Shown piece by piece: positions 1-37,086 of a stretch of 64,000 nucleotides of DNA; the stretch's first letter is position 1, and the number at the start of each line of letters is the position of its first letter. Position numbers and translations under genes: made by a program. Source of the DNA: Dictyostelium discoideum (taxonomy: Eukaryota); the NCBI GenBank assembly GCA_000004695.1, contig CM000153.2:96001-160000 (forward strand), given 5' to 3'. The notes below the pieces were generated by a model. That model was not told where the DNA came from. It saw only the letters and a program-made list of their open reading frames with translations, and did not search any database.

Positions 1-2705
1 ATAATAATAATAATAATTTTAATAATAATTTATCACCAACATTAAATAGTATTTTACCAAATTTAAATAATATAAGTATAAATAGTGGTAGTAATACAAT
101 TGGACCAAATTCTTCAATGTCATCAATTTTATCGCCAAGAATTGGAGAATTTGATGAAAATGGTGTTGATGTATCATCACCTAATAGTAGTAGTTTATCA
201 TCATCATCATCAAATAATCAAATTGAAGAAGAGAAATTTATTGGTTCATGGAGATGTCAAATGGTTGTACCAGTTGGTGTTATACCTGGTCAATTTACAA
301 TCACATCACATTATTTAACATTTGATAAAGATATTCAAATTGTTGATCAACGTACTGGTAGAACATTTTCACCATCATTAAATGGTATTCAACAACAGCA
401 GCAGCAACAGCAAGATCAAGATTTTGGTAGTGTTAAAATTAAAAATACTTATATTTGGAAAGTTAAGGATTTAGTTGAAATTCATAGAGTTAGATATTTA
501 TTAAGATGGAATTCAATAGAGATCTTTTTAAATCATAAATCATATATGATCAATTTTAGTAAGGAACAAGAATCCATTCAAATCTTTAATAAAATCGTTG
601 CATTACATCCACCCAATTTAAGGGTGAAATGGTCTGATCATCCATCGAAAATTATAAAGAAATCAAAGTTAACAATGAAATGGAAGAATAGAGAGATTTC
701 AAATTTCGAATATCTAATGTCATTGAATACTATCGCAGGTAGAACCTATAATGATATCTCTCAATATCCAGTTTTCCCACAAATCATTTCAGATTATAAA
801 TCTGAATTTTTAGATTTAAATGATAGTCGTTCCTTTAGAGATTTATCTAAACCAATGGGTGCATTGAATCAACAAAGGTTAGATACATTGATTAAACGTT
901 ATCAATCGATGCAGTCTGCTCAAGATCCAACTATGCCTCCATTCCTCTATGGTTCTCATTATAGTAATTTCGGTATTGTAGCTTATTATCAAGTTCGTTT
1001 AGAACCATTCACTTCCTTTCATCTGTCATTGCAAAGTGGTGTTTTCGATCATCCTCAAAGAATGTTTGAATCGATGGATAAAATGTGGGATGGTGTCTCT
1101 GGTAATAATTTAGCAGATGTAAAAGAATTGATTCCAGAGTTTTTCTATATGCCAGAGTTTATAAACAATGGTGAGGGTTTTAATTTTGGTTTCACAAATT
1201 CAAAGAGTGGTGATTTAATATTACCAAATTGGGCTCATCAATCACCTGAACTATTCATTCAAATCAATAGAGAGGCATTGGAATCTGAATATGTATCTAT
1301 GAATCTTCATCATTGGATTGATTTAATATTTGGTTTTAAACAAAATGGTCCAGCTGCTCAAGAGGCTAATAACGTATTCTTTCATCTTACCTATGAGAAT
1401 AATGCTGCATTACAACGTGATGATCCTGATGAACGTCAATCTATTGCTTCACAAATTAAAGAGTTTGGTCAAACTCCACCACAATTATTTTCAAAACCAC
1501 ATCCAATTCGTAAAACTCTTCAAGAGATTTCAAAACCACAAAAAGATTTATTTGCAAGAATTGCTCAAAATTTATTTAGTCCTTCAAATAATGGTACGAT
1601 TAATTCAAGTTTCTCATCGACTTCGACATCAACATCGACATCATCACCACCACCATCAACATTGAATTCACCACAAGGTCCATCACTTCAATATCCATTT
1701 AAAGTTTTAAAAACTAAAAGTAGTTTACCATTAGTTCATATTAGTAGTTGTCAAGATAGTGATATTGTTGTTTTAGTTTATAGAGATGGTGTAATGGCTG
1801 TTAATCAATTCGTACCATCACCAAATGGTAATTTACCATTCACTTTTGATATTGATAAAACTTTATCAACCTATAAAGAGAAACAAATCGATACTTTATT
1901 CATGTCTGATAGTGTAACTTGTATATCAAATTGTTTTGCAATTACACCCGATGGTAAATTTATGTTTTCTTGTGCCACTTGGGATAGTGTATTCAAATGT
2001 TCAAATATTCAAAATGGTCGTGTTCATAGATTGTATCGTGATTTTCATCATGATATGGTCACTTGTATTTCATTGGGTTCAAATGGTAAACATTTTGCAA
2101 CCGCTTCAAGTGATACAACAATACTGGTTTGGAATGATGTTGATCATTTAATTAAAGATTCAAAAGCAAAACCATCCTATCGTCTTTGTAGTCATGATGA
2201 ACCAGTTCATTGTTTAGATATCAATGAGGAATGGGATCTAATCGCTTCGGGTTCAATGGATAAGAAATTAATACTTCATTCATTGGGTAAAGGTCATTAT
2301 CAACGTTCAATGATTCATAATGGTGCTGTGGAAATCGTTAAGATCTCTACTGTCGGTCAAACAATTATAAGCTATTGTTCAATGTCTTTTCTTTATGTTC
2401 ATTCTTTTAATGGAAAATTATTAAAGATTCAACAATCTGATGAAAAAATTTATGATGCAAAGTTAACTGGTGAATCTGTCAAAAAAGGTGGGGTTTTAGG
2501 TGTTGGTTCTTCAACTCAATATCTTGTTACTGGTGGTACTCGTGGTGTTAAAGTTCGTTCTTTACCAGACTTAAATATTGTTCATGCTTTCGATAGTCCT
2601 GCTGCAATTAAAACAATTGAATTGGTTGCTCATGAAAAATATATGTTAATTGGTTTAAATGATGGTAATTTAGTAATCATTCCATTTGATGTTAAAGATT
2701 TATAA
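1..2705 (+). CDS. BEACH-domain protein (Lvs/LYST/neurobeachin family), C-terminal part: PH-like, BEACH and WD40 domains. The 5' end lies upstream of the window.
   Basis: The frame is open from base 3 (NNNNNFNNNLSPTLNS...) through the ATG at 117 to the stop at 2705. BEACH motifs are present: NREISNFEYLMSLNTIAGRTYNDISQYPVFPQII, GSHYSNFGIVAYYQVRLEPFT, LIPEFFYMPEF, HWIDLIFGFKQNGPAA. A PH-like region precedes them (GSWRCQMVVPVGVIPGQFTITSHYLTFD) and WD40-like repeats follow (TCISLGSNGKHFATASSDTTILVWN; LIASGSMDKKLILHS). There is no intron in this stretch. I cannot say which lvs paralogue it is. Confidence 0.85.
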   Translation, partial: NNNNNFNNNLSPTLNSILPNLNNISINSGSNTIGPNSSMSSILSPRIGEFDENGVDVSSPNSSSLSSSSSNNQIEEEKFIGSWRCQMVVPVGVIPGQFTITSHYLTFDKDIQIVDQRTGRTFSPSLNGIQQQQQQQQDQDFGSVKIKNTYIWKVKDLVEIHRVRYLLRWNSIEIFLNHKSYMINFSKEQESIQIFNKIVALHPPNLRVKWSDHPSKIIKKSKLTMKWKNREISNFEYLMSLNTIAGRTYNDISQYPVFPQIISDYKSEFLDLNDSRSFRDLSKPMGALNQQRLDTLIKRYQSMQSAQDPTMPPFLYGSHYSNFGIVAYYQVRLEPFTSFHLSLQSGVFDHPQRMFESMDKMWDGVSGNNLADVKELIPEFFYMPEFINNGEGFNFGFTNSKSGDLILPNWAHQSPELFIQINREALESEYVSMNLHHWIDLIFGFKQNGPAAQEANNVFFHLTYENNAALQRDDPDERQSIASQIKEFGQTPPQLFSKPHPIRKTLQEISKPQKDLFARIAQNLFSPSNNGTINSSFSSTSTSTSTSSPPPSTLNSPQGPSLQYPFKVLKTKSSLPLVHISSCQDSDIVVLVYRDGVMAVNQFVPSPNGNLPFTFDIDKTLSTYKEKQIDTLFMSDSVTCISNCFAITPDGKFMFSCATWDSVFKCSNIQNGRVHRLYRDFHHDMVTCISLGSNGKHFATASSDTTILVWNDVDHLIKDSKAKPSYRLCSHDEPVHCLDINEEWDLIASGSMDKKLILHSLGKGHYQRSMIHNGAVEIVKISTVGQTIISYCSMSFLYVHSFNGKLLKIQQSDEKIYDAKLTGESVKKGGVLGVGSSTQYLVTGGTRGVKVRSLPDLNIVHAFDSPAAIKTIELVAHEKYMLIGLNDGNLVIIPFDVKDL

Positions 2706-2814
2706 AAAAAATAAAAAAATAAATAAAAATAAAAAAAAAAATAATAATAATAAATTAAAGGATTAGATTGGGGGAGGGTTATATAGAAAAAATTAAAGAT
2801 AGTTATTTATTCAT

Positions 2815-3660
2815 TTATTGTTTTTTTTTTAAAATATTTGAAATGAATAATGAAATGATTATTAAAATTGATAATAGATTTTGAAAGATATTTCTGGCAT
2901 CAGAGTATTGATGAACATCATCAGATTGAGTTAAATATTTGAATACTTTTGATTTGCCACTTTTACCATTGGCTGAAACATTGATAAATATCATTTCACC
3001 ATTTTTTATATTATTATTGGTTGTTTGAATAAAACATGTTATCATTGTATCATTAATATAATTTGGTTCATTACAATTTAAAATATCAATACCACTACTA
3101 TTACCACTACCATTACTACAAATTATTGTAACTTTATCAATTGGATAATAGAAATCATTACCAATAATTGTTAAAATACCTCCTTGTTTTAAATTAATTA
3201 TACTATTTTGATTAATTGATGGTTATTTATAGATTATATTAAATGTTGATACTATTTTATTATTATTGTCAAATTGAATCACCAACTGTTATTGATATAT
3301 TAATATTATTTGACGATGGTGATCAAGTTAATCTATTACCATTAATTATTAATAAACCACCTTTTAATTTTGGAATACTATTTACACTTGTTGGAATTGG
3401 TGGACATGTAATTTGAAATTTATTTGGCCAATAATCACAACAACCAACTTGAACATTTAATTTTGATGAGAATGGATCTGAATAATTAAATTTTAATTTA
3501 ATATTTTCAAAATCAACTGAAATAATATCATTTGGATCAAAAGTATTATTATCAATTTTAACAGCAACCAAATTTGATTATTGTATTAATTTGTACCAGT
3601 TATATCAAGTACTGATTCAATAATATCAATATTTTCAAATTTTGGATCTTGATATGTAGT
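2815..3660 (-). pseudogene. Fragment or pseudogene of an IPT/TIG-domain cell-surface protein (tgr-like family). Three coding segments lie in three different frames, with a C-terminal TM anchor.
   Basis: Minus-strand translation gives NTTYQDPKFENIDIIESVLDITGTN*, then (+1) SNLVAVKIDNNTFDPNDIISVDFENIKLKFNYSDPFSSKLNVQVGCCDYWPNKFQITCPPIPTSVNSIPKLKGGLLIINGNRLT*, then (another frame) NQNSIINLKQGGILTIIGNDFYYPIDKVTIICSNGSGNSSGIDILNCNEPNYINDTMITCFIQ...LLSILIIISLFISNIL-KKKQ*. The P.I..S..P..G...GG..I.I.G.N ... C pattern is typical of IPT/TIG repeats. I could not find GT-AG introns that reconcile the frames, so I call it a degenerate copy, or a gene with unusual splicing. Confidence 0.4.
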
Positions 3661-3974
3661 ATTTTATAGTGCTTCGCTGGTCAATGAAGCACTAACTCCT
3701 ACCTGCTTGTGCCTTGAGTCATTAATGACCTAAAATAATTTTTTTTTTTTTTTTAATTATCCAAGAAACTAACCATAGTCATCATTATTTTTTGAGTTTA
3801 AATTTTGGAATAGGCAACTGGTGGTATTAGATTTTTTTTAATTTTTTTTAATTTTTTTCAAATTTTTCTTTTTTTTTATTTTTTTTATTTTTTTTTTTTT
3901 TTTTTTTTTTAAAAAAAAATCTAAAAAATACGATTTATAAAAAAAAAAAAAAAAAAAAAATAATAAAAAAAAAA

Positions 3975-5720
3975 ATGATTTTTAATAAACCAAGTTTAAG
4001 AAATCATTTACCAAAACGTTTAACATTTAAAAAATTAATAAAAAAAGAAAAATATGTTAATACCAATCCAAAATATAATAGAGACAATAATTGTATTCAA
4101 GATATAAAGGTTACCAATGAAGATAGATTATCAAGAAAAATATTAAATAGTTTAGTATTTCATGATGTTTTGGAACATTTAATGGTAAAGATGAAATTTG
4201 AACAACTTTTAGAGCTATCATTAGTATCGAAAACAACATTCAATCTTATTAGGTCTCAACTGTCATTCAATTTTCAACATTATAAATTCAATATTGGATC
4301 ATTCGTTGGTGTTAGAAATTACATATCGGATACATTAGAAAAAGAAATGGATGATCCAAACATATATCAATGTAAACTTTTACCATTCAGAGAAATGGAA
4401 TATATTGCAATGGAATTTGATTCAGATCAACATAAAACCGAAATTTACAATGACTCACATGGTTATGTGTTTAGACAAACAAAGAAATTTAAAAAACTCT
4501 TTAGCTCAACTTGTACAAATCTAAAGAAAGTTCATATTTTAATGAATATTTGTGCACATTTTATAACGGCTCAAGAAATAGATTTTGAAAGAAAATCAGT
4601 ATCCGATCAATTTAAAAGTTCAACATCAGTTGAAATTAAAAAGAAGGCAAGAATGGAATTAATTAGAGATTACTCTCATAACGGATTCTTTACCTATGAA
4701 ACATTAATATTTAATTTAAACATGACATCAATTCCAGTTTCAGATGAACAAGAATTTTATGAACATAGAACATATAAACAACAACCATTTGAACAACCTT
4801 TACCTGCTTTTAAATTTTCATTTAAATTAATTAATAAATATCAACCGAGAGTACTTATAATTAGATATATTCCACCAGCATCATCATCACCACCTGAAGA
4901 AGAATTGGATGTACAATATCCAATATCAGTTTTTAATTTAATAAATTTTGAAAATATTTTTAATTTCCCATCAATTGAAATCGTCAAATTCTTTGATGTG
5001 CCAATTTCAAAATCATTTATAAGGAAACTTTTCACACAAAAAACATGTAAAATTAAAAAATTATTTTTAACAGGTTCTGAAGTTTCCCATTCGATTATTA
5101 GTGAAATCTCATTGGCTTTGGTTGAAAATAAAACAATGTTGAAACAACTTTGTTTAAATACAAATTCCCCAAGAAAGATTTTTCTATTTCAAGCAAATTC
5201 TTTACAACAAAGTTTATTATATCATAAATTTGCATATAAAGATGAAAGAGAAACTTTAGATATAATTCCAAATGATTTCTTTGAAAATTTAAAAATTTTA
5301 ACTCATTTTCATTCTTTAACTTGTATGGATTTATCAAGTCTTACTTTTAATTTAACTAAACTTTTACCTTTAAAACAAATTTTATCACTAGAGAAATTAA
5401 AATATCATTTTCGTTCAAATTATGATGTCTCTCTTTTAAATATTCTATTAGAATATTGTAGAGATCAAAATAATGAAATCATTCAATTAAAATGTATTTT
5501 CGATGATATAAAATCAGTTGGTGATTACTTTAAAGCATTCATTCAATTCTTTTATAATTATACTCTACCAGATAATTATCCACCTTGGTACTTTACTATT
5601 AATATTAAAATTATTGATAAATCTTTCCAAAAAAAAGAATATTTTATTGATTATTTAGAATTAAAATATAAATTATTAAATTCTTCTGAAAATAAACAAA
5701 TTAATGTTATAATAAAATAA
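3975..5720 (+). CDS. Hypothetical protein, 581 aa, with an N-terminal F-box-like motif and C-terminal leucine-rich-repeat-like region.
   Basis: Single long ORF with typical codon usage. An F-box-like stretch is VFHDVLEHLMVKMKFEQLLELSLVSKTTFNLIRS. C-terminal LRR-like segments include LKILTHFHSLTCMDLSSLTFNLTKLLPLKQILSLEKLKY. Family assignment is from motif resemblance only. Confidence 0.55.
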   Translation: MIFNKPSLRNHLPKRLTFKKLIKKEKYVNTNPKYNRDNNCIQDIKVTNEDRLSRKILNSLVFHDVLEHLMVKMKFEQLLELSLVSKTTFNLIRSQLSFNFQHYKFNIGSFVGVRNYISDTLEKEMDDPNIYQCKLLPFREMEYIAMEFDSDQHKTEIYNDSHGYVFRQTKKFKKLFSSTCTNLKKVHILMNICAHFITAQEIDFERKSVSDQFKSSTSVEIKKKARMELIRDYSHNGFFTYETLIFNLNMTSIPVSDEQEFYEHRTYKQQPFEQPLPAFKFSFKLINKYQPRVLIIRYIPPASSSPPEEELDVQYPISVFNLINFENIFNFPSIEIVKFFDVPISKSFIRKLFTQKTCKIKKLFLTGSEVSHSIISEISLALVENKTMLKQLCLNTNSPRKIFLFQANSLQQSLLYHKFAYKDERETLDIIPNDFFENLKILTHFHSLTCMDLSSLTFNLTKLLPLKQILSLEKLKYHFRSNYDVSLLNILLEYCRDQNNEIIQLKCIFDDIKSVGDYFKAFIQFFYNYTLPDNYPPWYFTINIKIIDKSFQKKEYFIDYLELKYKLLNSSENKQINVIIK

Positions 5721-6022
5721 ATAAAAAAAAATAAAAAAATAAAAAAATAAAAATAAAAGTTGTAACTTTAAAAATTTAAAATAAAAAGGTTGGAGGTAAA
5801 AAAAAACTCAAACATCACCATCACCATCGTCATCTCACTATATATATTTTACTATTTTTGATTAATATAACTAATAGTTGGTAATAAATAATTGATAATT
5901 TCTTAAAAATTAATTTTTATTGATTTTTTTATTTTTAATTGATTTTTAACTTTATTTAAATTAAACATAAATCGTTTATTTTTTTATTTTTTATTTTTAT
6001 TTTTATCTTTTTTTTATTGTTA

Positions 6023-8770
<2,748 letters not shown>

Positions 8771-9575
8771 TTTGATACTTGTGGTAAAATTTTATCTTTT
8801 GGTCAAAAATAAAAAAAATAAAAAAAATAAAAAAAATAAAAAAATAAAAAAAATTAAAAAAAATAAAAAAAAATTAAAAAAATAAAAAAATAAAAAAAAC
8901 TCTTGGTATTAATTATAAAAATAAAAAGATATAGAATCTACAACTATCATATTAATATATGTCTACTTATTTATAAATAATTTTAAAAAGAATATTTAAA
9001 AATTAAAAAAAAAAAAAAAAAGACAAATTCGCTCAATATTCCGAAATTACAAAATTCACCATATAAGGGGACCGACAAAGTGTTTTAATTTTTACAAATA
9101 TTTATATTGCGAAACATTTTAAAAGAATATATTTTTTTTTTTTTGCATAAAAATTTCTTTATTATTTATTTTTTTTTTTTTAATTTTAATTTTTTTTCAA
9201 AAATGTATACCATAAAAATAGTAGCATAACTAAATTATAACTAAAGTTTGCTGTGGAGATGGAACATTTAATTTGTTCTTGCCAGATCACAACACCTATA
9301 AGTTAATAGATTATCTGATTACGGTGGGAAAAAATGATTTGGCGTTGATATAGTAAAGATTATAAATGAAAAATATTTTTTTTTCAAGGTTAATAGTATA
9401 TTCACACATTTATGGGTCTTTTTTTTTTTTTTTATTTTATTCTTTTTTTCATTTTTTCAATTTTTTTTTTTAGAAAAATTTGAATTATTCCAAAAAAAAA
9501 AAAAAAAAAAAACAAAGCGGGAAGGCAACACTTTTTTTTAAAAATTATTTCAAATAACAGCTAAAATTGTAAAAA

Positions 9576-10310
9576 ATGGGAAAAAGAGATAAAAAAATAA
9601 TAATAGAAGAACCAGAAGAACTAGAGGAAGCAGAAGATGTTTTTGAAGTTGAAAAAATTTTAGATAAAAGAGTTCAGCATGGAAGGATTCAATATAATGT
9701 AAGATGGATAGGATTTTCATCAGATTATGATACATGGGAAGATGAAGATAATGTTGCAGGTTGTCCAGAACTAGTTAAAGAATTTGAAAGTTCAAGACAA
9801 CAAGAAAAAAAAAAAAGTAAAAAAAGAAAACATACTATAATTAACGACGATCCAACTGCAGTAGAAATATCATCATCATCATCACCACCAACCACCAAAC
9901 CTTCATCATCAACAACAGCAGCAGCACCAGCATCATCATCAGCATCAGTAACAACAAAAACAGCAACAGCAACAGTAACAACAGATACATATTTTTCTAA
10001 TAATACTACATCAACACACCAAAAAACAAATCATTCAGTTGAGGTTGAAGAAAATATAAAAAATGAATATATAAAATTTGGTGTACCTTATATTGAAGGT
10101 GTTGGTTTTGAAAATGGTCATTGTGTTGAGGAGGTTATAGGTTGTAAACCCTTTGGTCAAGATAATACACTATTTTTCTTTGTTAAATGGAGAGACCAAG
10201 AAAAATTATCTTGGGTACCAAATGAAATCCTTAAACATAAAGAACCATTACAATTAATTGAGTTTTATGAAAGTAGACTTAAATTTGGTTATAGTGGTCA
10301 GCCAAGTTAA
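9576..10310 (+). CDS. Heterochromatin protein 1 (HP1) homologue with an N-terminal chromodomain and C-terminal chromoshadow domain, 244 aa.
   Basis: The chromodomain is EDVFEVEKILDKRVQHGRIQYNVRWIGFSSDYDTWEDEDNVAGCPELVKEFE. The chromoshadow domain is CVEEVIGCKPFGQDNTLFFFVKWRDQEKLSWVPNEILKHKEPLQLIEFYESRLKF. A Ser/Thr/Ala-rich hinge separates them. Dictyostelium has HcpA/HcpB/HcpC, and I cannot tell which paralogue this is. Confidence 0.85.
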   Translation: MGKRDKKIIIEEPEELEEAEDVFEVEKILDKRVQHGRIQYNVRWIGFSSDYDTWEDEDNVAGCPELVKEFESSRQQEKKKSKKRKHTIINDDPTAVEISSSSSPPTTKPSSSTTAAAPASSSASVTTKTATATVTTDTYFSNNTTSTHQKTNHSVEVEENIKNEYIKFGVPYIEGVGFENGHCVEEVIGCKPFGQDNTLFFFVKWRDQEKLSWVPNEILKHKEPLQLIEFYESRLKFGYSGQPS

Positions 10311-11110
10311 AAAATAAAAAAAAAAAAAAAATAAAAAACGAAGGATAAAAAAAAAAAAATAAAAAAATAAAAAAAAAGAAAACATCTGTACTTTATTAAT
10401 CTTAAATCTTCAAACAATTTCTTTTTTTTTTTTTTTTTTTTTTTAAATCTTTCAATAAAATATATTTCCTCATTTTTCTTCAAAACAAAAAGATAATTAC
10501 AAAAAATGAATGACAAATAATTAAATTCTAAAAATAAAAAAACATTCATTTTATGTATTTTATATTTTGTGTATTTTATGGGTATTCTATTTTTTTATAC
10601 AAAATCGATATTAAAATAAAAAAATTAATTGATTATTTTTTTAAAAAAAAAAATAAAAATAAAAAATAAAAATAATTTAAAAATAAATCAGATTCTCATT
10701 GTTTGGATGGGGTAATTTTTTTGATTATTTATTTTTTTTAATCAAATTTTAAAACGAATAATAAAAACAAATAAATTAATCCAATAAAAAAAATATAAAA
10801 TATAAAATAAAATTAATTATAATATCAAACCTTCTATTTTTTTATTTTTTTTTTTTTTTCTTTTTAAAAGAAAAAATTTAATAAAAACATTTATATTTTT
10901 TTTTTTATTAACAAAAAGAAATCCTCAAAAATATGAAAAAAAAAAAAAATAAAATAAAATTTAAAAAATATCTTGAACATCAAAGAAACTAAAATGTCAA
11001 AATGTTCGTTAATTTCCCAATGGACCATATTTTTTTTGTATTGGGGTGGTTTTTTTTTTTTTTAAAAATAGAATTTTTTTATAAAAAAAATAAAAAAAAT
11101 AAAAAAAAAA

Positions 11111-11145
<35 letters not shown>

Positions 11146-11174
11146 CCTTTTTACTAAAAATATAATAAAGAAGT

Positions 11175-11750
11175 ATGGTTATAAATAAATTAATATTATT
11201 AATTTTATTATTTTTTTGTAAAATTTCATATGTTTTTACACAAAAATTACCAGATGGATTTTGTCCATCACCTTTAATTTATAAAAATTCAACTGACAGA
11301 ATTAGTGATATCAATAGAGGTTATCAATTTATTGGAGAAACAAATTGTGTACAACCTTGTCCATCTTTGGTTTATTCAGAATCTGATTGGAAAAATTTTT
11401 TTGATGCTAGTTTATATGGTGGAGCAATTTCCATATTTTGTTCATTATTTTTATTAATAACCTATAGTCCATTAGTAAATAATAAACATAATAGACATAC
11501 TATTTCAATTATGTTTTTATTTTCTGGAATTTTTATAATGTTGGCATCAAATGGAAGAGTTTTTTGGAATAATAATGAAGGATATTTTGATAGAATTTGC
11601 CCTGAAAAAGGTAGATTTGCAAGACAATCTGATAGATATTGTTTAGCTATGGGAATATTTTATCAATTTGGTTGTTTAACTGGAATGATGTATGTAATTA
11701 TTGATCAATTATAAAAACAAGAAAATAGTAAATTATTAATAAATTATTTT

Positions 11751-11792
<42 letters not shown>

Positions 11793-12589
11793 GGTGGTGG
11801 ACAACATTATCTGTTGATGTATGGATGACAATTAAAAAGATTAAAATTTCAAATCGTCAAATATTTTATTATGCTTGTATTGTTAATTTTTTAGCGATTT
11901 TCTTAACATTTATACCAATTGCAAGAGATCAATATGGTGCTTCAAATTTTGGAATTGGTTGTTGGATTTTAGGTTTGTGGGATCAAGTTTTTGGATTTTG
12001 GGCACCATTAGGTATTTGTTTAACAATTGGTTGTATATTTATTACTCTTATAATGTATGAAATTTATAAAGCAACAGGTCAAATTAAAAAGAAATTATTA
12101 TTAAAATATTATAAACCACTCGTTTTGATAATTTTAATGTTTTTTGAATTTTTTTATATGTTTATTTTCATAACATATATTATTGATCATAGAAATAAAT
12201 ATAATGATGAAGTTGCTGAATATATAGTTTGTATATTAATAAATTCTGGAAATCCAAATTATGATGAAATTTGTAAAATTAAAAGATCAATTCCTCCTGC
12301 AGCTCAATTTTTATTCTTTTTATTTTCTAGATTAATGGGTTTTGAAGGTGTAATTTTCTATGGATTAACTAATCAAACTAAAAGAATATGGTTAAGATCA
12401 TTTTGGTTTAATAATAGAATTTCATTAAAATTTAGATCTTCTTTTAATATTTCTTCAAGTACAAATAGTAGTACAAATACATTTGAAAAACAAACTCCAT
12501 CACATTTAGTTGACCCAATTGATCAATTTGATAATATTGAAATTTCAAATAATCAAAATATAGAATTATCTCAAATCGAAAACAAATAA
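11175..12589 (+). CDS. Frizzled/smoothened-like 7TM receptor lacking the CRD (Fsl family). Two exons, 11175-11689 and 11794-12589, about 436 aa.
   Basis: Exon 1 has a signal peptide, a Cys-containing linker ([10 protein letters not shown]...[10 protein letters not shown]) and TM1-3. It ends ...GMM with the GTATGT donor at 11690 in phase 2. The acceptor is tag|G at 11794. Exon 2 (G|[15 protein letters not shown]...) carries TM4-7, followed by a frizzled-like K-T-x-x-x-W type motif ([15 protein letters not shown]). The junction is supported by the 7TM topology continuing across it. Confidence 0.6.
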
Positions 12590-13029
12590 AAAAAAAAATT
12601 AAAAAAAAATTAAAATAATAAAAAAAAAAAAAAATTAAAAAAAAAAAATAAAAAACCAAAATGTAGTTTTAGACTATCATTAGATGATTTAATTTGAAGA
12701 GAAAAAAAAATATCTTTTGTTGATTTGATTTAAAAAAAAAAAAAAAATTTGATTAGCAAAGCAAAGCGGCAGTGGTTTACAAAAAAAAAAAATTTTGTAA
12801 AGGGGAAGATTAAAAAAAAAAAATAATTAAAAAAAAAAAATATATTTTTGATCTTAGGTTTTGTGATTTTTAAAAATTAAGTACCCCATATTAAACAAAT
12901 TTTAACTAAATTTTGTAGTATGATGGTTTTTTTTTTTTTTTTTTATTGATTACTTTTACTTTTTTTTTTTTTTTATTACTATTATTTAAATTATTCTGTA
13001 TTTAATTATTTTAAAAAATATAAATAAAA

Positions 13030-14049
13030 ATGAAATTATTAATTCTTTTAATAATTTTAATTATAAATTTAAAATTGTATTTATGTAATTTAGAAATTGA
13101 AAATTTATTTATTGAATGGACAAATAAATATAATAAAATATATAGTAATAAAGAATTTTATATGAGATTTAATAATTTTAAAAAGAATAAAGAATATGTT
13201 GATCAATGGAATGAAAAACAATTGGAAACTATTTTAGAATTAAATTTTTTTGCTGATTTATCAAGAAACGAATATATAAATAATTATCTTGCAAGTTTTA
13301 TTGATATTTCAAATATTGAACAAAAGAATACTAAATATGAAGGAAATTTAAAAAATAATTTTAACAATTCAATAAAATCAATTGATTGGAGAAATTTTGA
13401 TGCAGTAACACCTGTAAAAAATCAAGGTTTATGTTCTGGAGCTGGTTATTCATTTTCTGCAATTGGAGTAATAGAAAGTTCACATTTTATTAAAAATAAA
13501 GAATTAATAACATTATCTGAACAAAATATTATTGATTGTACAACTGATATGGGCAATAATGGTTGTATGGGTGGACTTGCTTTAATTGCATTCGACTATA
13601 TTATTAAACAAAAAGGAATTGACAGTGAATTTAATTACCCATATGAAGGATACCTAATAGAACCATATGAAGGTAGAGGAAGATGTCGTTATAATTCATT
13701 CTATTCAAAAGCTTCAATTAGTTCATATATTGAAATTGAAAGATTCAATGAGAATGAATTAACTCAATCTCTAATAAAATCTCCAGTATCTGTAATGATT
13801 GATGCTTCACAATTATCATTTATGCTTTATAAATCTGGTGTTTACAAAGATCCATCTTGTTCAAGTACAATATTAAATCATGGAATATTAAATATTGGAT
13901 TTGGTGTGACACCTGAAAATGGTAATGAATATTATATTTTAAAAAATTCTTTTGGTTCGAAATGGGGAATGAAAGGTTACATTTATTTATCTAGAAATTT
14001 TAATAATCATTGTGGTATATCTTCAGTTGGAATTTCTGTTGTTATTTAA
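13030..14049 (+). CDS. Secreted papain-family (C1A, cathepsin-L-like) protein with the catalytic Cys replaced, a predicted pseudoprotease, 339 aa.
   Basis: It has a signal peptide (MKLLILLIILIINLKLYLC) and an I29-like propeptide (EWTNKYNKIYSNKEFYMRFNNFKKNKEYV). The active-site region reads QGLCSGAGYSFSA where papain has QGxCGSCWAFS, so the catalytic Cys becomes Ala and the following Trp becomes Gly. The His (NHGILNIGFG) and Asn (YYILKNSFGSKWGMKGYI) regions are conserved. Confidence 0.7.
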   Translation: MKLLILLIILIINLKLYLCNLEIENLFIEWTNKYNKIYSNKEFYMRFNNFKKNKEYVDQWNEKQLETILELNFFADLSRNEYINNYLASFIDISNIEQKNTKYEGNLKNNFNNSIKSIDWRNFDAVTPVKNQGLCSGAGYSFSAIGVIESSHFIKNKELITLSEQNIIDCTTDMGNNGCMGGLALIAFDYIIKQKGIDSEFNYPYEGYLIEPYEGRGRCRYNSFYSKASISSYIEIERFNENELTQSLIKSPVSVMIDASQLSFMLYKSGVYKDPSCSSTILNHGILNIGFGVTPENGNEYYILKNSFGSKWGMKGYIYLSRNFNNHCGISSVGISVVI

Positions 14050-14199
14050 ACAAAATAAAAAAAAAAAATAAAAAAAACTAATAAATTTTAATTTTAAATA
14101 AATAAATAAATAAATAAGTGTTTTTGTTTTATTATTATTATTAAACTTTCTAGGATAAATCAACTAAAACAAAAAAAACATTGATTTTTTTTTTTTTTT

Positions 14200-15283
14200 T
14201 TAAAGCAAAGCAAAGATAATTGAGAAAATAATTAAAGCAAAGAATGGAATAACAGTTGATGATGAACCTGGTTCATTGTCGTTATAACTTTCACTGTTCA
14301 TACTTGTTGACATATCACCATAGTATGAACCATTTGCACAAATGACATCCCATTTCCAATCCATTGGAAGATTTAAACTGTAATCAGCATCTTGAATTAA
14401 AGCAATGACACCTTGACCACAACGAGAACCACCAACATCACTATTACCTTTATCAGTAAAGTTATGAACGGCCATACCTCTACCAATGACTAAAGCGGCA
14501 GTGACATGATCAGTCTCATAATAATAGTAACCAGTATCCATCATATCTTGAGAGAAAGCACAGAAATTACCAAAATCACCATAATGTCTAGTTCCAGATG
14601 GTGGGAGAGAATGTTCTTGACCAGTCTTTAAGAAATGACCACCAATTGAAGTACCATTATCCGATGAAACATCACCAAATTGATGAACATGGAAACCATG
14701 AGCTTGATAAGATAAACCGGAAACTTTAGCAGATACTTGAATGAATGAAGAATTGAGTGCTTTGAATAAAACTCTACCTTCAATGTAATCACCTTTGGTG
14801 ATGGTAGTATTGTAAACTACTGCTAAACCAATTGCATTCTCTAAATTTGAATAGGATGATGCAGTGTTGACACCTGTTAATTTAGATTTATCAAATGATG
14901 AATAATCGATATTACCAACACCAATAGTACAAAAACTAATCATATCACCAATTACTGATTTACTTGGATCTGAACAATCATAACTACCACCATAGATTGC
15001 AATTGAACGACCAATAATTGAATTGGCATCATCTTTAATATTTGGAATGTTTAATGAAATTGTTTGTGCTTCAACATTACCACCATTTGCTTGAATATTA
15101 CCAATATCACCTGCACGTGGTGTTCCACTTGGACATCCTGCTGTCTTTACATTGGTTGGATCAAATACACTTCCTAAATTGGTCATTGATGATGGATTAT
15201 AACCATATGTTAAAATTTGTGCAGCAAATTGTGTATTTTGTGCATATGATGTTGTAAAATCAAATGTAATATTTAATGTTGTT

Positions 15284-15326
<43 letters not shown>

Positions 15327-15541
15327 TAAAATAATTTAAATAAATAAATAGTTAATAATTATTCCAAATTTTTTTTTGGAAAATATTATTTTTAAACACT
15401 TACATCAGTACTTAAAAGATGAGCAATACCTTCAACACCACCAATTGATAATTCATTGAATTTACAAAAAGCATATTGGTAATCGGCTTTTGCAATGGAA
15501 ATAACTGAAATCAAAAATACTAATACAGATAAAAGTCTCAT
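14200..15541 (-). CDS. sodC: Extracellular GPI-anchored Cu/Zn superoxide-dismutase-like protein with two SOD-like domains, possibly SodC. Two exons, 15541-15404 and 15285-14200, 407 aa.
   Basis: Exon 1 is MRLLSVLVFLISVISIAKA DYQYAFCKFNELSIGGVEGIAHLLSTD with the GTAAGT donor at 15403. The acceptor aag|GGA is at 15286, and the reading continues GTTLNITFDF... into the track ORF. The second domain has the Cu/Zn-SOD signatures GFHVHQFGD...GGHF and GRGMAVHNFTDKGNSDVGGSRCGQGVIAL. The upstream domain is degenerate (GRSIAIYGG..., His ligands missing). The C-terminus SSSTVIPFFALIIFSIIFALL looks like a GPI signal. The sodC symbol is a guess from a recalled 407-aa GPI-anchored SodC. It could be another extracellular SOD paralogue. 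Confidence 0.7.
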
Positions 15542-15918
15542 TTTTTATTTTGAGATAAATAATCAATCAGACTGTAACTTGGAGGAGAAAAAAAAAAAAA
15601 AAAAAAAAAAAAATGGCTATACGGAAAAAAAATTTTTTTAAAAAAAAAAAAAAATAAAAAAAAAAATAAAAATAAAAATAAAAATCAGAAAAGATATTTT
15701 TTTTTTTTTTTTTTAATAACAAACCAACTGCCTGCCACTTGGGTATTATTTGAAAAATAACAATCAAATAATTTATGAACTAATTTCTTGAAAATATCTA
15801 AAAAAAAAAAAATAAAAAATAAAAATAAATAAAAAAAAAAAAAATATTTAGACACTTAAGATAAAAACCAGATTTGTGAATTTAGGGATTTTTTGGTTGT
15901 AAATTTAGGGATTTTTGG

Positions 15919-17430: not shown

Positions 17431-18507
<1,077 letters not shown>

Positions 18508-22730: not shown

Positions 22731-23131
22731 ATGAAAAGAAGTTTAGCACCAAGTGCAATTTATGAAAATAAAAAATTAAAATACGATTTACCAGATATAG
22801 TTGAAACAACTCCAGATGATAGTGATAAAGGTAAAAGAGGTAGAAAGAAAGCACCTATACCAACAGTTAATCATTTAGAGAAATATTCAATAAAGAAAAA
22901 GGTTGAATTAAAAGATGAAGATAATAAAAGTGATGATGGTAGTGTTAGTAGTGGTAGTAGCAATGGTGATAAAATTAGAGAAGAAACAAAAAAAGGTAAA
23001 AATCAAAGAATGAACCCAGATTCTGACCCATATTACTTTTTAATTAAATATAAAAATACAACAAAAAATGATGAAGAAGATGGTTTAGGTTTGTATTTTA
23101 TTATTATTTATTATTTATTATTTATTTATTA

Positions 23132-23166
<35 letters not shown>

Positions 23167-25607
23167 AAGGTATTTTAATATTATATTATGATCAAGCAAT
23201 TGTTCAATCAATTGAAGGTAGACAAATTGGTAAAACTGGTTTAACAAGAAGTAATGATGATGATGATGATGGCAAAGGTCAATATCAAAAAGTAATGATT
23301 AAAAAGAAGGAAGTTTATTTTCAAGAGGATTTTGCAATGGCAATTGGTAATAAATGGATAAAGATTATTTTATCAGTTGGTGAAGAAGAGTTTAAGAATG
23401 GTTCAATCTTTTTGAAGACAGATAGTATTATAAAAAAGAAAAAAGAGGAAAAAAAAGAAAAAAAGGCACCAATTCTAGCAGCAGCTCATAGACCAAAAGG
23501 ATTTCAAGTACCAGTGAAGGGATTGGAGAAAGCAGTACGTCTTTCCAAACCATTACATAACCCATTGGCACCCAATTCATTGGTATTGTTTACACCAGTC
23601 GATATCACTGGTGAGAATAGAATTCATTGTGTTGTAGATCCTATATTATCACAAAAACTTAGACCACATCAAAGGGAGGGTGTTCAATTCATGTTTGATT
23701 GTTTGTTGGGATTTAGAGGTGGTTTCAAAGGTAATGGTTGTATTTTAGCCGATGATATGGGTTTGGGTAAATCAATTCAAGCGATCACTATCCTTTGGAC
23801 ACTCTTAAAACAAGGTCCTAAGGGTGAATCGACTGCAAAGAAGGCTGTAATCGTTGCACCATGTACTTTGGTTGGTAATTGGGGTCAGGAATTAAAGAAA
23901 TGGTTAGGTGATGGTGTAAATACGGTTGCAATTGGTGAGAGTACAAAAACAGGTCGTGCCAAATTGACAGAGTTGGAATTTGGTAAAGCAGATGTACTCA
24001 TCATTTCCTATGATCAACTTCGTATCTATTGCGAGGATATTTGTAAGATTACATCGATTGGTTTGGTAATTTGTGATGAAGGTCATCGTTTGAAAAATGC
24101 AGAAATTAAAACCACCAAAGCAGTATCGATGATACCAACAGCTCGTCGTGTTATTCTCTCTGGTACACCAATTCAAAATGATTTAACCGAATTTTATGCA
24201 ATGGTTAATTTCGTTAATCCTGGTGTATTGAAAAATGTTGCAACCTTTAAAAATGTTTATGATGCTCCAATTGTTGCCTCGAGAAATCCAGATGCTTCCG
24301 ATGAAGAGAAGGAGATTGGTCGTCAACGTTCTTTAGAGTTGAGTAGATTAACTAGTCAATTCATTTTACGTAGAACTGCATTTGTAAATACTCAATATCT
24401 TCCACCAAAGGTAGAATACGTTATCTTTTGTAAACTTACACCTCTTCAACTTTCAATCTATAAACATCTCATTAAAGAAGCAAAAGATTCTGCATTTGCA
24501 TCGACAACTGGTGCCTTACCATTAATTACCACATTGAAAAAGTTATCAAATTGTGCAGAGTTGGTTTACACACCCGATAAAGAGACAGATGTTGGTACCT
24601 CCATATTAAAGTTATTCCCAAAGGAATGGAATCCAAAAGTTTTCCAACCACAATACTCTAGTAAGTTATTGTTTGTAGATCGTTTACTTGCAAATATTAG
24701 AAACTCAAAATCTGGTGATAAAACTGTAATCATTTCAAATTATACTCAAACCTTGGAAGTATTGGCAACAATGTGTAAAACTCGTGGTTACGCATACTTT
24801 CAATTGGATGGTTCGACAGCCAATGCTAAACGTCAACAATTGGTCAATCTTTATAATGACCCAGCCAGACCAGAGTTTGTATTTCTTCTTAGTTCAAAAG
24901 CAGGTGGTGTTGGTTTGAATCTTATTGGTGGTAATCATTTGGTTTTATTCGATGCAGATTGGAATCCAGCAAATGATGCCCAATCTATGGCTCGTGTTTG
25001 GAGAGAAGGTCAAAAAAAAATCGTATCCATTTATCGTACCTTTACAACTGGTACCATTGAAGAGAAAATCTTTCAAAGACAATTAACCAAACAAGCACTT
25101 TCAACAAGTATCACTGAAGGGGATTCTGATAATTCACCATCTTTTGACTCAAAGGATTTAAAAGATATTTTTACACTTCGTGAAGATACACTTTGTGATA
25201 CTCATGATATGTTAAGTTGTAAATGTGCACCTACTGTTGGTGGTAAAATCCCAAAACATAAAAGAGATACCATGTCTATTAGTGAACTTAATTCATGGCA
25301 TCATTTCCATCAAATGGAAAAAATTAAAGATCAAAAAGTTGCTTCAGCATGTCAAGATATTGCAACATTTGTTTTTGTAAATGATAAAGGTCCAGTTGAT
25401 AAAAACAAATCAAAAGAAAAAACTTCAAATACTACTACAACTACTACAACTACCACTTCAACTTCAACTTCTAAATCTGAAAAATCATCACCACCACCAT
25501 CTTCATCAAAACATAAGAAAAAAATTATTGAAGAATCAAGTGATGAAGATGATGATACACCAGATGAAGCTTCAAGTGATGAAAGTTATAATTCTGATAG
25601 TGATTAG
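22731..25607 (+). CDS. rad54: RAD54-like SWI2/SNF2 DNA repair and recombination ATPase. Two exons, 22731-23088 and 23170-25607, about 930 aa.
   Basis: Exon 1 ends ...NDEEDGL G with the GTTTGT donor in phase 1. The acceptor aag|GT gives G-ILILYYDQAIVQSIEGRQIGKTG..., continuing into the track ORF. SNF2 motifs are present: LRPHQREGVQFMFDC, ILADDMGLGKSIQAITILWTLL, DEGHRLKN, LSGTPIQNDLTEFYAMVNF, LSSKAGGVGLNLIGGNHLVLFDADWNPANDAQSMARVWREGQKK. The region HNPLAPNSLVLFTPVD...HCVVDPILSQKLRPHQ is close to the human RAD54 N-terminal region. Confidence 0.85.
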
Positions 25608-25744
25608 TTAAAAAAAAAAAAAAATTTCAAAATAATAATAATAACATAATAATAAACTGATGATTTTGTAAATGTACATAAAAATTTCTTTTTCAATTTT
25701 TTTTTATTGATTTATTTAAACTTTTTCTTATTATTTATTTTTTT

Positions 25745-25767
25745 TATATATTTTTTTATTTATTTTT

Positions 25768-25826
<59 letters not shown>

Positions 25827-25830
25827 TATT
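25745..25830. repeat. (TTTA)n of about 20 units downstream of rad54.
   Basis: Direct reading. Confidence 0.9.
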
Positions 25831-25849
25831 AATGGTTGAGAATATTTCA

Positions 25850-26400
25850 AATGGTGGTAAATAACATGACAAGGTTGTATCATTAAAATATTTTGTATTT
25901 AAACATTCACCATCATTGTATTATTATTATTATAAAGACAAAACCATTCACCATTCATTGTGATAGTACTATCAATTTTGAAATTGAAATTGTATCATAT
26001 TTTTGTTTAAATATTAAATTTTGATTAGTAACCCGAGTTACATTTATTAAACAGCTTCCACTTGGTAATTTAGTTTGAAGAGTTCTAATTATACCACTTT
26101 TTTTCAGTACTATTATTAATTGAATAATTAGAATTTGTAATATTAATGTTGTCGAAATAGTAAATCTGTATTATTTTTATTTAAACCACCACATTTTATT
26201 TATTGATCCACAAGCATAAACTAAAGGGTTGTAACATTAACTGTTAAATAAAATATCTTGGATTAATTAAAATTGAAATTTTATCATAAATTTTTACAAA
26301 TATGATTATCATCATTAACTTTTAATATAATTAATTCATGGTCAATAGAGAATATTTTATAGTTTTTATTGTTAACAGTTACTAATCACCAATTTTACAC
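25850..26400 (-). pseudogene. Degenerate paralogue of the IPT/TIG (tgr-like) fragment at 2815-3660, with stops in every frame.
   Basis: The base composition is coding-like, unlike the flanking A/T desert. The minus strand shows remnants such as FNFKIDSTITMNGEWFCLYNNNN. Nucleotide similarity to 3120-3330 is visible, for example actattattaattgaataattagaatttgtaatattaatgttgtcgaaatag against actattttgattaattgatggttatttatagattatattaaatgttgatactatt. Confidence 0.35.
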
Positions 26401-26510
26401 TTTACATCATGTTGGAGATTTTAAAACTTTCTTCACAGAGCAACAACAAAATACAGATAATATCCTTGAATTATCAATAAATAAATATATTTTTTTAAAA
26501 ATATTTGAAA

Positions 26511-26589
<79 letters not shown>
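26511..26589. repeat. (AAT)26 microsatellite in the 3' flank of the kinase gene.
   Basis: Direct reading. Track ORFs 26369-26608 and 26407-26670 are translations of this repeat. Confidence 0.9.
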
Positions 26590-26591
<2 letters not shown>

Positions 26592-26740
26592 GAATAATAA
26601 TGAAATGATTAATAAATAAAAATAATAATTTTTTTTGAAATAATAAATAAAATAAAAAATTAAGTATCAATTTATTTATTTATTTATTTTTTAATTTTAA
26701 AATTAATCTTCAATGATTCTTAATTCTTGGTTATTAATAA

Positions 26741-27537
26741 TTAATTAATTAAAAAATTTTTGGGTGGAAAATTATCATAATCAGTTGAAATTTGATTAGA
26801 GAATGGTCTTGTAGCAAATGATTGAATTAAATGATCAATGAAATCAGTATCATTTGGATATTTTTGTTTTAAATTTGGATTTGTTTTTAAAACTGATAAA
26901 GATTTCTTTAATTTTGATAAAGTTGTTGAACGTTCCATAGTTGTTTTAAATTGTGATAACATTTCAAAGAAAATCACACCAACACTATATAAATCAGTTT
27001 TTTGATTATAATTATCACCTTGTTCTTGTTCATTACTACTATATAAATAAGTGCCTAATCCACCCACCTTTTTATTGTTATTATTGTTATTGTTAATGTT
27101 ATTGTTATTGTTATTGTTACTATCTACTGTTAATGATTCAATCGTAGTTGCTAAACCGAAATCACCAATTTTAATACCAAATGGTGATTGACAAACAAAT
27201 ACATTATCAGGTGTAATATCACGATGAACGAAACCTTGTGAATGAATATATTTCAATGCAACTAAGATTTGTCTAGTTATCTCTCTACATTGTTTAATAT
27301 CCAATGATATCAATATATTGGTTCCAATTGGATTTGCAATGGATGATGTTGATTGAATTGATGTTATTGATTTAATATTATTAATTTCATTTATTAAATT
27401 TCTTAATGTACTATATTTACATAATTCCATTTGTATATATAATGAAAATTTCTTTTGTTTTAATTGATTATAATTATTATTATCATCATTTGTGCATTCA
27501 CTTATTGATAAATTTCCATTACCTATACTATAACTAC

Positions 27538-27568
<31 letters not shown>

Positions 27569-28654
27569 GTTTGAAATATATGTTGCTTTGTTATTTGAAT
27601 AACTATTTGATGAATTTGAAACTAATGATGATGATGATGCTGCTGCTGATACTGATGAATAAGAAGATGATGGAAATGAATCAATATTCTCAAATAAGTT
27701 ATTATCATTTTCACCATAATGATCAATTGAGTTATTTGTTATAATTTCTTCTTCAATCCAAGAACCATAATATCTTACGATATTAGGATGATTTAATCTT
27801 GCCATTGCTCTAACTTCCATTAATTCTTTTGTTGGAATTTTTTGATTTACTTTGATTCTTTTTACTGCATATTCCATTTGGTCAAATATATTACAACATT
27901 GAAAAACAATACCAAACCCACCTTTACCAAGTACTCTTACATCATTAAATTCATTATTAAATCTACTATTATTATTATTATTATTGTTATTTAAAGATTT
28001 TGATGATACTGACGATGATGACGATAATGTTGATGATGACGATGATGATGCTGATGATGATGCTGATGATAAAGTTTGTGATGACTCTGATAATGATGAA
28101 GAAGATGATGAAGAAGATATTGAATCATTGTTATAATTATCATTATTATTATTATCAATAAGATTATTATTATCATTATTATTATTACTATTAGTTAAAC
28201 TATTATTAATACTATTTAAGTGAAGTAAACTTGAATTTAATTTATTTAATGTATTGATTTTTGAAGCTAGTGAAATCTTTTTATTACTAATTTTTGAAAC
28301 AGATATACCAGAATCTGCTAATAAATTGGTCATTTGACTAATATCCTTATTGTTAATAGCCACTAAAGTAATGTTACTTCTATGTGATGCTCTATTAAAT
28401 TTGTTATTATTTTTAATATTATCATTATTATTATTATTGCTATTGCTATTGTTAGTATTATTATTATTATTATCTATTGATTTTGTTGTGCTATTGTTTT
28501 GTGTATTGGCAGCAGTGATTGGTTTTGAACTTTCATTATTATTATTATTATTTGAACCATTAAAATTTAAACTGAACAAAAGACTTCCATTATTATTATT
28601 ACTCGAAAGTGAATTTCCAATTCTTTTGGTTGCACTCGAGGTAAACTTCCACAT
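26741..28654 (-). CDS. Ser/Thr protein kinase with eIF2alpha-kinase-like features and long Asn/Ser-rich regions, 637 aa.
   Basis: Kinase motifs are LGKGGFGIVFQC, YAVKRIKV, HRDITPDNVFV, IKIGDFGLA, GTYLYSSNEQ and DLYSVGVIFFEML. There is a long insert between subdomains IV and V and an activation segment of the GT.LY.SPE type, both characteristic of eIF2alpha kinases. The catalytic loop has Thr where the HRDLKPxN Lys is expected. Confidence 0.7.
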
Positions 28655-28797
28655 CTTTTTTTTTTTTTTTTTGAAAAAAAAGAAAAAATAAGTGGAAGGT
28701 GTTTTTTTTTTTTTTTTTTGTATAATAGATTGATTGTTCTTGATTGATTAATTAATCTCTGATTTTAAAACCCAAACTCTATTACTAATTAATTGTT

Positions 28798-28829
<32 letters not shown>

Positions 28830-29456
28830 TATAATTGAGAGGAAAAATGATCCGTAACACGTGGAGATTAATTCTCAAAAATTTCAAAATTTTTTTTTTC
28901 AATTTTTTTTTTTTTAATTAATTTTTTTTTTTTTATTATTTTTATTTTTTTGGGCAACGCTAAATAATTTAACCATTAAAAAAAAAATTTATTAATGACA
29001 CCTTAGAAAAAAAGAATTGATAAAATCGGAAATCCTTTTCCACTTTTTACCGATCTACAATTTTTGTCCAAAAAAGAAATTTGATTTTTTTTTTTAAAAA
29101 AAAAAAAAAAAAACCACACATATAGAAATCACCGAATTTGTTCATTTTGGTAATAAAAAAAAAATGATAAAATGAAAAAAAATCAAAAAAAAATAAAATT
29201 GGGTTCCATTTTACAATTATTTTGATCAGACAAATTTTTTTATTTTTTTTTATTTTTTTTTATTAATATTTTCAATTTAATAAAAAAAAGAATAAAAAAA
29301 AACCACAATATTAATATTGAGAGGGCGAGTATTTATTAAATCACAAATTTCTTTTTATGATTATTTTTTTTGTATCACTGTTTAGATTATTATAATATTC
29401 AATGTGGTTTCATCTTTTTAAAACTTGATATTTATCAACAAAAAAAATCTTATTTT

Positions 29457-31873: not shown

Positions 31874-37086
<5,213 letters not shown>

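Follow-up and report, generated by a model that had tools for sequence, protein, structure and literature searches.

A probable tgrI pseudogene fragment and two candidate older Tgr relics in a 64-kb window of the Dictyostelium discoideum AX4 lineage

In Dictyostelium discoideum AX4 the tgr family comprises 38 genes and 26 pseudogenes (PMC12745789). In its tgrAHIO clade, genes duplicate at a rate close to that of transposons, with gain and loss of whole arrays of partial genes; many tgr homologues are truncated fragments, and the functions of TgrA, TgrH, TgrI and TgrO are unknown (PMC12745789). The genes and pseudogenes lie in clusters that evolve by birth and death, with pseudogene copies that differ between strains (bioRxiv 10.1101/2025.10.22.684067). 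Here we describe a stretch of 64,000 nucleotides (nt) from the AX4 lineage (GCA_000004695.1, contig CM000153.2, positions 96,001 to 160,000; hereafter the window) that carries a fragment of this family at 2815-3660 (region 1) and further Tgr-like material in and near 25850-26400 (region 2). Our preferred reading, to which we give a probability of about 0.88, is that region 1 would be a dead partial duplicate of a tgrI-type gene and that it and two further, much older Tgr relics near region 2 would all be debris of the birth-and-death turnover of tgrAHIO, that is, of duplication, partial copying, deletion and decay. The finding is an instance of the known published pattern and is ordinary for a family that duplicates as fast as tgr.

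Region 1 lies on the minus strand and consists of three coding-like segments that run from about 3658 down to a stop codon at 2817-2815. Homology to intact genes begins at about 3658-3667 and continues down to, and past, this stop, which bears out the limits of 2815-3660 set by an earlier reading of the letters alone (the original prediction). The joined translation of the segments retrieved six matches, all of them Dictyostelium Tgr proteins (E 1e-42 to 1e-74), and one of these, P0003, carries the Pfam domains Ig_TgrO1 (PF24612) and TIG (PF01833). An intact relative was found in D. cf. discoideum (L002 14732-17312), with a gene model of 836 amino acids (aa) and a main exon of 820 aa. A search with this exon recovered 38 family members, including AX4 Tiger protein I3 (TGRI3_DICDI, Q54RE1), the closest named protein at 84% to the intact query, and Q54R85 (XP_639162.1), an unnamed paralogue that is the closest intact AX4 protein to the fragment. 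A hidden Markov model (HMM) built from 28 tgrI family members scored segments 1, 2 and 3 of region 1 (numbered from its 5' end) at 25.6, 185.7 and 234.9 bits and found nothing else in the window. The identification as a frameshifted and truncated IPT/TIG fragment of the tgr family, already made in the original prediction, thus stands on homology, on the HMM and on the lesions mapped below.

Two features attributed to this fragment, a transmembrane (TM) anchor and IPT/TIG repeats, hold with some qualification. TIG profiles were built with jackhmmer over 188 Tgr-superfamily proteins, and they recognise region 1 at 60.8 bits (3222-2974) and at 10.1 bits (3391-3197). The Pfam TIG model itself stays below threshold at region 1, with no hit on the joined translation and 15.3 bits against a cut-off of 20.9 on a public 152-aa model of the locus, and it passes at the homologous positions of intact relatives. 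Ig_TgrO1 (PF24612) gave no hit at region 1; the first such domain (aa 84-170) lies upstream of the 5' breakpoint (aa ~168) and the second was in the 1.13 kb that are deleted. The last segment does end in a hydrophobic C-terminus, ...NLLSILIIISLFISNILKKKQ followed by the stop at 2817-2815; this end, ...NLLSILIIISLFISNIL-KKKQ and stop, is homologous to the family tail ...LLLSILIIIIISLLFISNI and stop, and represents a membrane anchor, which may be TM or a glycosylphosphatidylinositol (GPI) signal. Taken together, these results place region 1, very probably, in the tgrI subfamily of the D. discoideum tgr family as a pseudogene fragment.

We mapped the lesions base by base against the intact L002 gene and the AX4-lineage gene in L008, the relatives being 820-850 aa long. 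The features of region 1 are as follows.
3580-3658, minus strand, frame -2: segment 1, reading ...TYQDPKFENIDIIESVLDITGTN, a stop, then YN; aa ~168-194 of the 820-aa exon, by blastn, tblastn and HMM
3588-3586, minus strand: in-frame stop, TAA
between 3580 and 3579, minus strand: deletion of 1 nt
3270-3579, minus strand, frame -1: segment 2, reading VAVKIDNN...CCDYWPNKFQITCPPIPTSVNSIPKLKGGLLIINGNRLT, a stop, then SPSSNNINISITVGDSI; includes the first ~42 residues of the relatives' Pfam TIG domain
3325-3323, minus strand: in-frame stop, TGA in place of ancestral TCA
3266-3271, minus strand: out-of-frame deletion junction with ~1.13 kb gone (L002 15742 to 16872), placed from adjacent blastn blocks
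2815-3267, minus strand, frame -2: segment 3, last TIG-like domain and hydrophobic C-terminus
3225-3223, minus strand: in-frame stop, TAA in place of ancestral TCA
~2832, minus strand: deletion of 4 nt with loss of the ancestral stop; read-through adds LKKKQ, giving ...NILKKKQ and a stop at 2817-2815

The segments therefore use two frames (-2, -1, -2) and not three, as had been supposed, and small in-frame insertions or deletions also occur. Around the deletion junction the homology falls into two blocks. Block A (3658-3270) is equivalent to aa 168-298 of the intact exon, so that it opens just past Ig_TgrO1 domain 1 and covers the initial 42 residues of the Pfam TIG domain (aa 257-335) before it breaks off. 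Its DNA identity is 89.5% to L002 15353-15742, 92.4% to the P0003 gene (L002 10675-11057) and 91% to the AX4-lineage gene in L008. Block B (3267-2815 plus ~45 nt of 3' flank) corresponds to aa 675-820, that is, the last TIG-like domain and the tail, and is 82% identical to L002 16872-17437 and 83-88% to L001, L003 and L008. The 5' truncation at ~3658 has removed ~500 nt of the main exon together with the signal-peptide exon, and the ~1.13-kb internal deletion has taken the second Ig_TgrO1 domain and several Ig-like repeats. Neither a signal peptide nor a full-length uninterrupted open reading frame (ORF) was found at region 1. Given these losses of exon and domains, the three stops and the frameshifts, region 1 is unable to make a secreted, membrane-anchored Tgr protein. 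When compared with the intact gene, block A has a ratio of nonsynonymous to synonymous substitution rates (dN/dS) of 0.36 and block B one of 0.58; intact or near-intact pairs give 0.18, and the increase is, on these small samples, consistent with relaxed constraint.

The stops and frameshifts are not sequencing errors, since they are identical in an independent assembly, GCA_054883475.1, where the same sequence is found on CM142510.1 (5.58 Mb). Window positions 1-15748 show 0 mismatches to this assembly and 16706-38673 show 13; over 2600-4100 and 25500-26800 the sole difference is the length of an A-run at 3939-3942.

Compared with TgrI3 and Q54R85, region 1 keeps the same order of Ig-like and TIG repeats and the same hydrophobic tail (...LLFISNI), with a protein identity of 88-91% in block A and 82-85% in block B, but it is without the signal-peptide exon, both Ig_TgrO1 domains and ~440 internal residues, and it has three stops and frameshifts. 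The AX4-lineage tgrI gene in L008 is 83-91% identical to region 1 in DNA. Known tgr pseudogenes are likewise truncated, internally deleted and stop-ridden copies that arise as the family quickly duplicates and loses genes (PMC12745789; bioRxiv 10.1101/2025.10.22.684067). The difference lies in location: region 1 and the relics near region 2 are found ~390 kb from the located intact tgrI, among unrelated genes of housekeeping type. This intact AX4-lineage gene, P0012, is at 5,059,521-5,062,100 of the chromosome on which region 1 is placed at ~5,451,742-5,452,587 (CM142510.1). With tgrB1 and tgrC1 the locus shares the superfamily, the TIG or Ig E-set repeats and the membrane anchor, but it belongs to another clade and there is no head-to-head B/C pairing at region 1. 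The role in kin recognition that the original prediction cited for the tgr family is that of tgrB1 and tgrC1 and cannot simply be carried over to tgrI, a member of the tgrAHIO clade.

Other partial copies of tgrI were found outside the window. L001 (the P0002 locus), ~1 Mb away, holds an independent C-terminal fragment; that this fragment could be a truncated ancestor shared with block B was rejected, because at its 5' end the fragment reaches further than block B, from which we infer that it arose separately. Another C-terminal fragment, P0006 in L003, stands beside transposon genes. In the tgrI array of D. cf. discoideum (L003 7401-8705 and 17848-21489; L002 10001-17312) there are two half-genes, N-terminal P0003 and C-terminal P0006, which lie ~80 kb apart with ends that overlap in sequence, near intact copies and beside a DDE_Tnp_4 transposase gene and an RVT/integrase retroelement. 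An unannotated C-terminal tgrI fragment at L008 509-950 has 80% identity to window 2780-3247; it lies ~9 kb from the intact gene P0012 and on the other strand.

The features near region 2 are the following.
26499-26612, minus strand: tgrI 3'-end stub, almost certainly a true relic, with the hydrophobic tail ...IISLLFISNI and the exact 34-mer TTAATCATTTCATTATTATTCATTTCAAATATTT
25813-25985, minus strand: probable decayed Tgr-type TIG relic, reading NFKIDSTITMNGEWFCLYNNNN, a frameshift, ECLNTKYFNDTTLSCYLPPFEIFSTININK and a stop
25850-26470, minus strand: exon-like GC island (21% GC) between the convergent SNF2 and kinase genes

The 34-mer of the stub is split into 26499-26518 and 26592-26612, parted by ~73 nt of (AAT)n at 26519-26591. 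Its first part, the 20-mer AAATATTTGAAATGAATAAT, has just two occurrences in the window, at 2832 and 26499 (0.07 expected by chance, even with two mismatches allowed), and it is present as well at the 3' end of all three family genes or fragments checked (L001, L002 and L003). The other part, the 21-mer GAATAATAATGAAATGATTAA at 26592-26612, is found exactly at L001 10539-10559 (chance expectation 0.01), where the 20-mer and the 21-mer overlap as one 34-mer. The stub is situated ~130 nt downstream of the stop of the kinase gene DDB_G0283065 (26741), outside 25850-26400. On the minus strand it stands upstream of the TIG relic, at ~500 nt, so the two cannot both belong to a single colinear gene; most probably they are left over from a short tandem array or from independent insertions. 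In the ancestral frame, the (AAT)~24 inside the stub would read as poly-Leu. Long microsatellites are present at 25740-25830 and 26519-26591, with (TTTA)n directly downstream of the TIG relic, and the tgrI fragment in L001 similarly ends in (TAAA)n.

The TIG relic was recognised with a profile seeded on the last TIG-like domain of Q54R85, a seed chosen without reference to region 2. At 25908-25813 (minus strand) this profile gave 7.6 bits (independent E-value 0.0012, profile positions 40-72), the third-best match in a six-frame scan of the window, behind two region-1 domains. A profile seeded on P0066 gave 4.1 bits (E 0.016) at the same place, with an N-terminal half-domain in the adjacent frame at 25973-25887. 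For the Q54R85-seeded and P0066-seeded profiles respectively, the best scores elsewhere in the real window were -0.1 and -2.6, those in the reversed window -2.1 and -5.2, and the maxima over 100 local shuffles of the other 62 kb were 3.0 and 1.1, so that 0 of 100 shuffles reached the observed scores. The best alignments of the relic are to proteins of another Tgr type, namely P0066, P0055 and P0054; P0054 belongs to a gene of the AX4 lineage that lies on a different chromosome. We consider the relic a real Tgr-type TIG relic with good, if lesser, confidence than the stub.

What is found near region 2 is less than what had been predicted. Tgr debris in the same orientation does exist ~23 kb from region 1, but there is no recognisable second copy of region 1 at 25850-26400: DNA similarity between the two was not detected by blastn (nothing at E<1e-10), by nhmmer with the intact gene (microsatellite matches only) or by tblastn with the 820 aa of the intact exon (its best match, at E=10, did not rise above the background), and the only shared sequence, ~34 nt, lies outside 25850-26400. 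When region 1 was compared with the window by raw blastn and tblastx, and region 2 was searched by tblastn at permissive settings, A/T-rich matches of low complexity dominated and made the results uninformative. A frameshift-aware Smith-Waterman alignment placed 26199-25858 colinear with aa 678-778 of Q54R85, its C-terminal 100 aa. The score of 70 was higher than in all 200 dinucleotide shuffles and in 198 of the 200 protein shuffles, but set against real 680-nt windows from the same DNA it ranked no higher than the 85th-93rd percentile. This alignment was discounted as evidence for region 2, being not significant against real sequence or in a best-of-N test.

The best surviving alternative, unlikely though not negligible, is that the island at 25850-26400 is not tgr-derived, but another decayed gene or a non-coding element, and that the TIG match is a chance one. 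At 21.4%, the GC content of the island exceeds that of its flanks (3-11%) and of typical intergenic DNA nearby (12-15%), and only ~170 of the island's 620 nt are assigned. In agreement with this alternative, the tgrI family HMM (-5.9 bits), nhmmer and blastn are negative on the island, as is Pfam in all minus frames, a TIG match at E=0.54 appearing only on a hand-joined reading; nor is the frameshift-aware best-of-N test significant. Against it, the TIG profile match is the best outside region 1 and outscores everything in the reversed window, in the 100 shuffles and in the real background, a colinear half-domain stands in the adjacent frame, and an unambiguous tgrI relic is ~500 nt away on the same strand.

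Some observations weigh against our preferred reading and should be considered with it. The pairwise dN/dS of region 1, taken on ~130 codons per block, is still below 1. The comparison assembly belongs to the strain lineage of the window itself (0 mismatches in 15.7 kb) and speaks for that allele alone; exact look-ups of four window proteins for further alleles returned only GCA_054883475.1, those of P0001, the BEACH ORF and P0016 gave no record, and the 90% clusters of three window proteins have no other strain inside. The TIG relic depends on one profile match of 7.6 bits, and the best Smith-Waterman score over 145 queries (83, D. citrinum P0066) was matched or exceeded by 10 of 100 real controls.

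A second alternative, which we regard as improbable, is that region 1 is a live short gene, in which splicing restores a single frame and yields a 203-aa tail-anchored mini-Tgr without signal peptide. Two gene models in public data suggest such a product:
P0001, older 152-aa model (UniParc UPI00004E3E11): single intron 3385-3203, GT...AG
P0045, 203-aa model (KAM9943576.1), minus strand: exons 3722-3707, 3647-3597, 3516-3340 and 3182-2815; introns 3706-3648 (GC...AG), 3596-3517 (GT...AG) and 3339-3183 (GT...AG)
Two of the three introns of the longer model and the sole intron of the shorter one have GT...AG ends, and the dN/dS below 1 also favours a live gene. However, the proposed introns align codon for codon with intact genes as ancestral coding sequence and contain the lesions; this is the case for introns 2 and 3 of the 203-aa model and for the intron of the 152-aa model. 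Its intron 1, with a GC donor, bridges an ATG in an unrelated GC-rich element to the start of the tgr homology. The 152-aa model departs from the ancestral frame over its first 24 residues, and neither model has a signal peptide or a complete Pfam domain. The intact L002 gene has no introns there, its single contiguous exon of 820 aa spanning the whole equivalent of region 1. A single frame is thus restored by annotation models only and, judged from the sequence, both are pseudogene artefacts that merely splice around the defects.

Equally improbable is that the fragment is not inert, whether as a spliced, signal-less mini-Tgr or, together with the relics near region 2, as a dispersed donor for recombination or conversion with the tgrI array 390 kb away. 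The donor idea extends to tgrI, as an analogy, a mechanism that has been put forward for partial duplicates of tgrB/C (PMC12745789).

Weakest of all, with next to no weight in our estimate, is the proposal of the original prediction that regions 1 and 2 mark the ends of a single segmental duplication or have exchanged sequence by gene conversion: both are on the minus strand and have in common an exact 20-mer and, next to it, a stretch of close similarity where the coding sequence for the C-terminus ends, but this 20-mer marks the family and not the pair, as it is also present at the 3' ends in L001, L002 and L003, no other similarity was found between the regions or their flanks (none in the neighbourhoods by dust-filtered self-BLAST of 1-6000 against 23000-29000), the region-2 21-mer is exact in L001 and region 1 is one ATT unit short there, the TIG relic resembles another Tgr type, and the decay is unequal, with region 1 82-92% identical to intact genes and DNA similarity undetectable at region 2.

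In sum, region 1 has lost the signal-peptide exon, the first Ig_TgrO1 domain and the ~1.13 internal kb and gained three stops and the frameshifts, and the 3'-end stub and the single TIG domain are probably much older Tgr relics in the same orientation. Under the turnover reading the three relics would have no function of their own and would not be the ends of one segmental duplication. The significance is mostly one of annotation hygiene: UPI00004E3E11 and KAM9943576.1 should not be counted as tgr genes or enter family trees. Remnants of Tgr genes, some as small as 34 nt or a single domain, appear scattered hundreds of kb from the arrays, which fits the transposon-like duplication rates of tgrAHIO, and they could serve to date old array positions through syntenic loci in 12 published genomes. 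A literature search for tgrI names and DDB_G0283065 returned nothing relevant.

The 5' breakpoint of the pseudogene is abutted by another feature:
3660-3730: unique GC-rich element of 70 nt, non-homologous to tgr genes
Its GC content is 38% in 50 nt, against ~20% around. It holds the hairpin AGTGCTTC-N10-GAAGCACT and the palindrome GTCATTAATGAC, followed by T16 on the plus strand, and the ATG of the 203-aa model (3722-3720) is inside it; the ATG of an F-box gene is ~250 nt downstream. The folding z-scores of the element are weak. Scans of the window and the element for tRNA and Rfam families, a search for a second copy of the element and a literature search for its sequence gave nothing relevant.

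The window has a GC content of ~20% and comes from a 5.58-Mb chromosome of the AX4 lineage, near DDB_G0283065, with exact AX4 protein matches for three of its ORFs. The neighbouring genes are:
117-2705, continuing upstream of the window: BEACH-domain ORF of 862 aa with PH_BEACH, BEACH and WD40 domains
3975-5720: F-box protein XP_639295, exact AX4 match
9576-10310: chromo-domain protein XP_639297, exact AX4 match
ORF stop at 25607: SNF2-family helicase gene, convergent with the kinase gene
26741-28654, minus strand: kinase DDB_G0283065, exact AX4 match, stop at 26741
In GCA_054883475.1 a BEACH-family gene of 2122 aa includes the BEACH ORF as its 3' part. This gene and region 1 are tail-to-tail, with a gap of 110 nt between the BEACH stop (2705) and the pseudogene stop (2815), and the gap contains at 2766-2785 a G-run unusual for the D. 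discoideum genome, GATTGGGGGAGGG. The ~10 genes between regions 1 and 2 are single-copy and unrelated. The strongest repeat within the window in the dust-filtered self-BLAST is 18002-18315 against 35228-35567 (76.5% identity over 341 nt); its copies are inside two different long ORFs, 17431-18507 and 34705-37086, which suggests a shared coding domain or a partial duplication.

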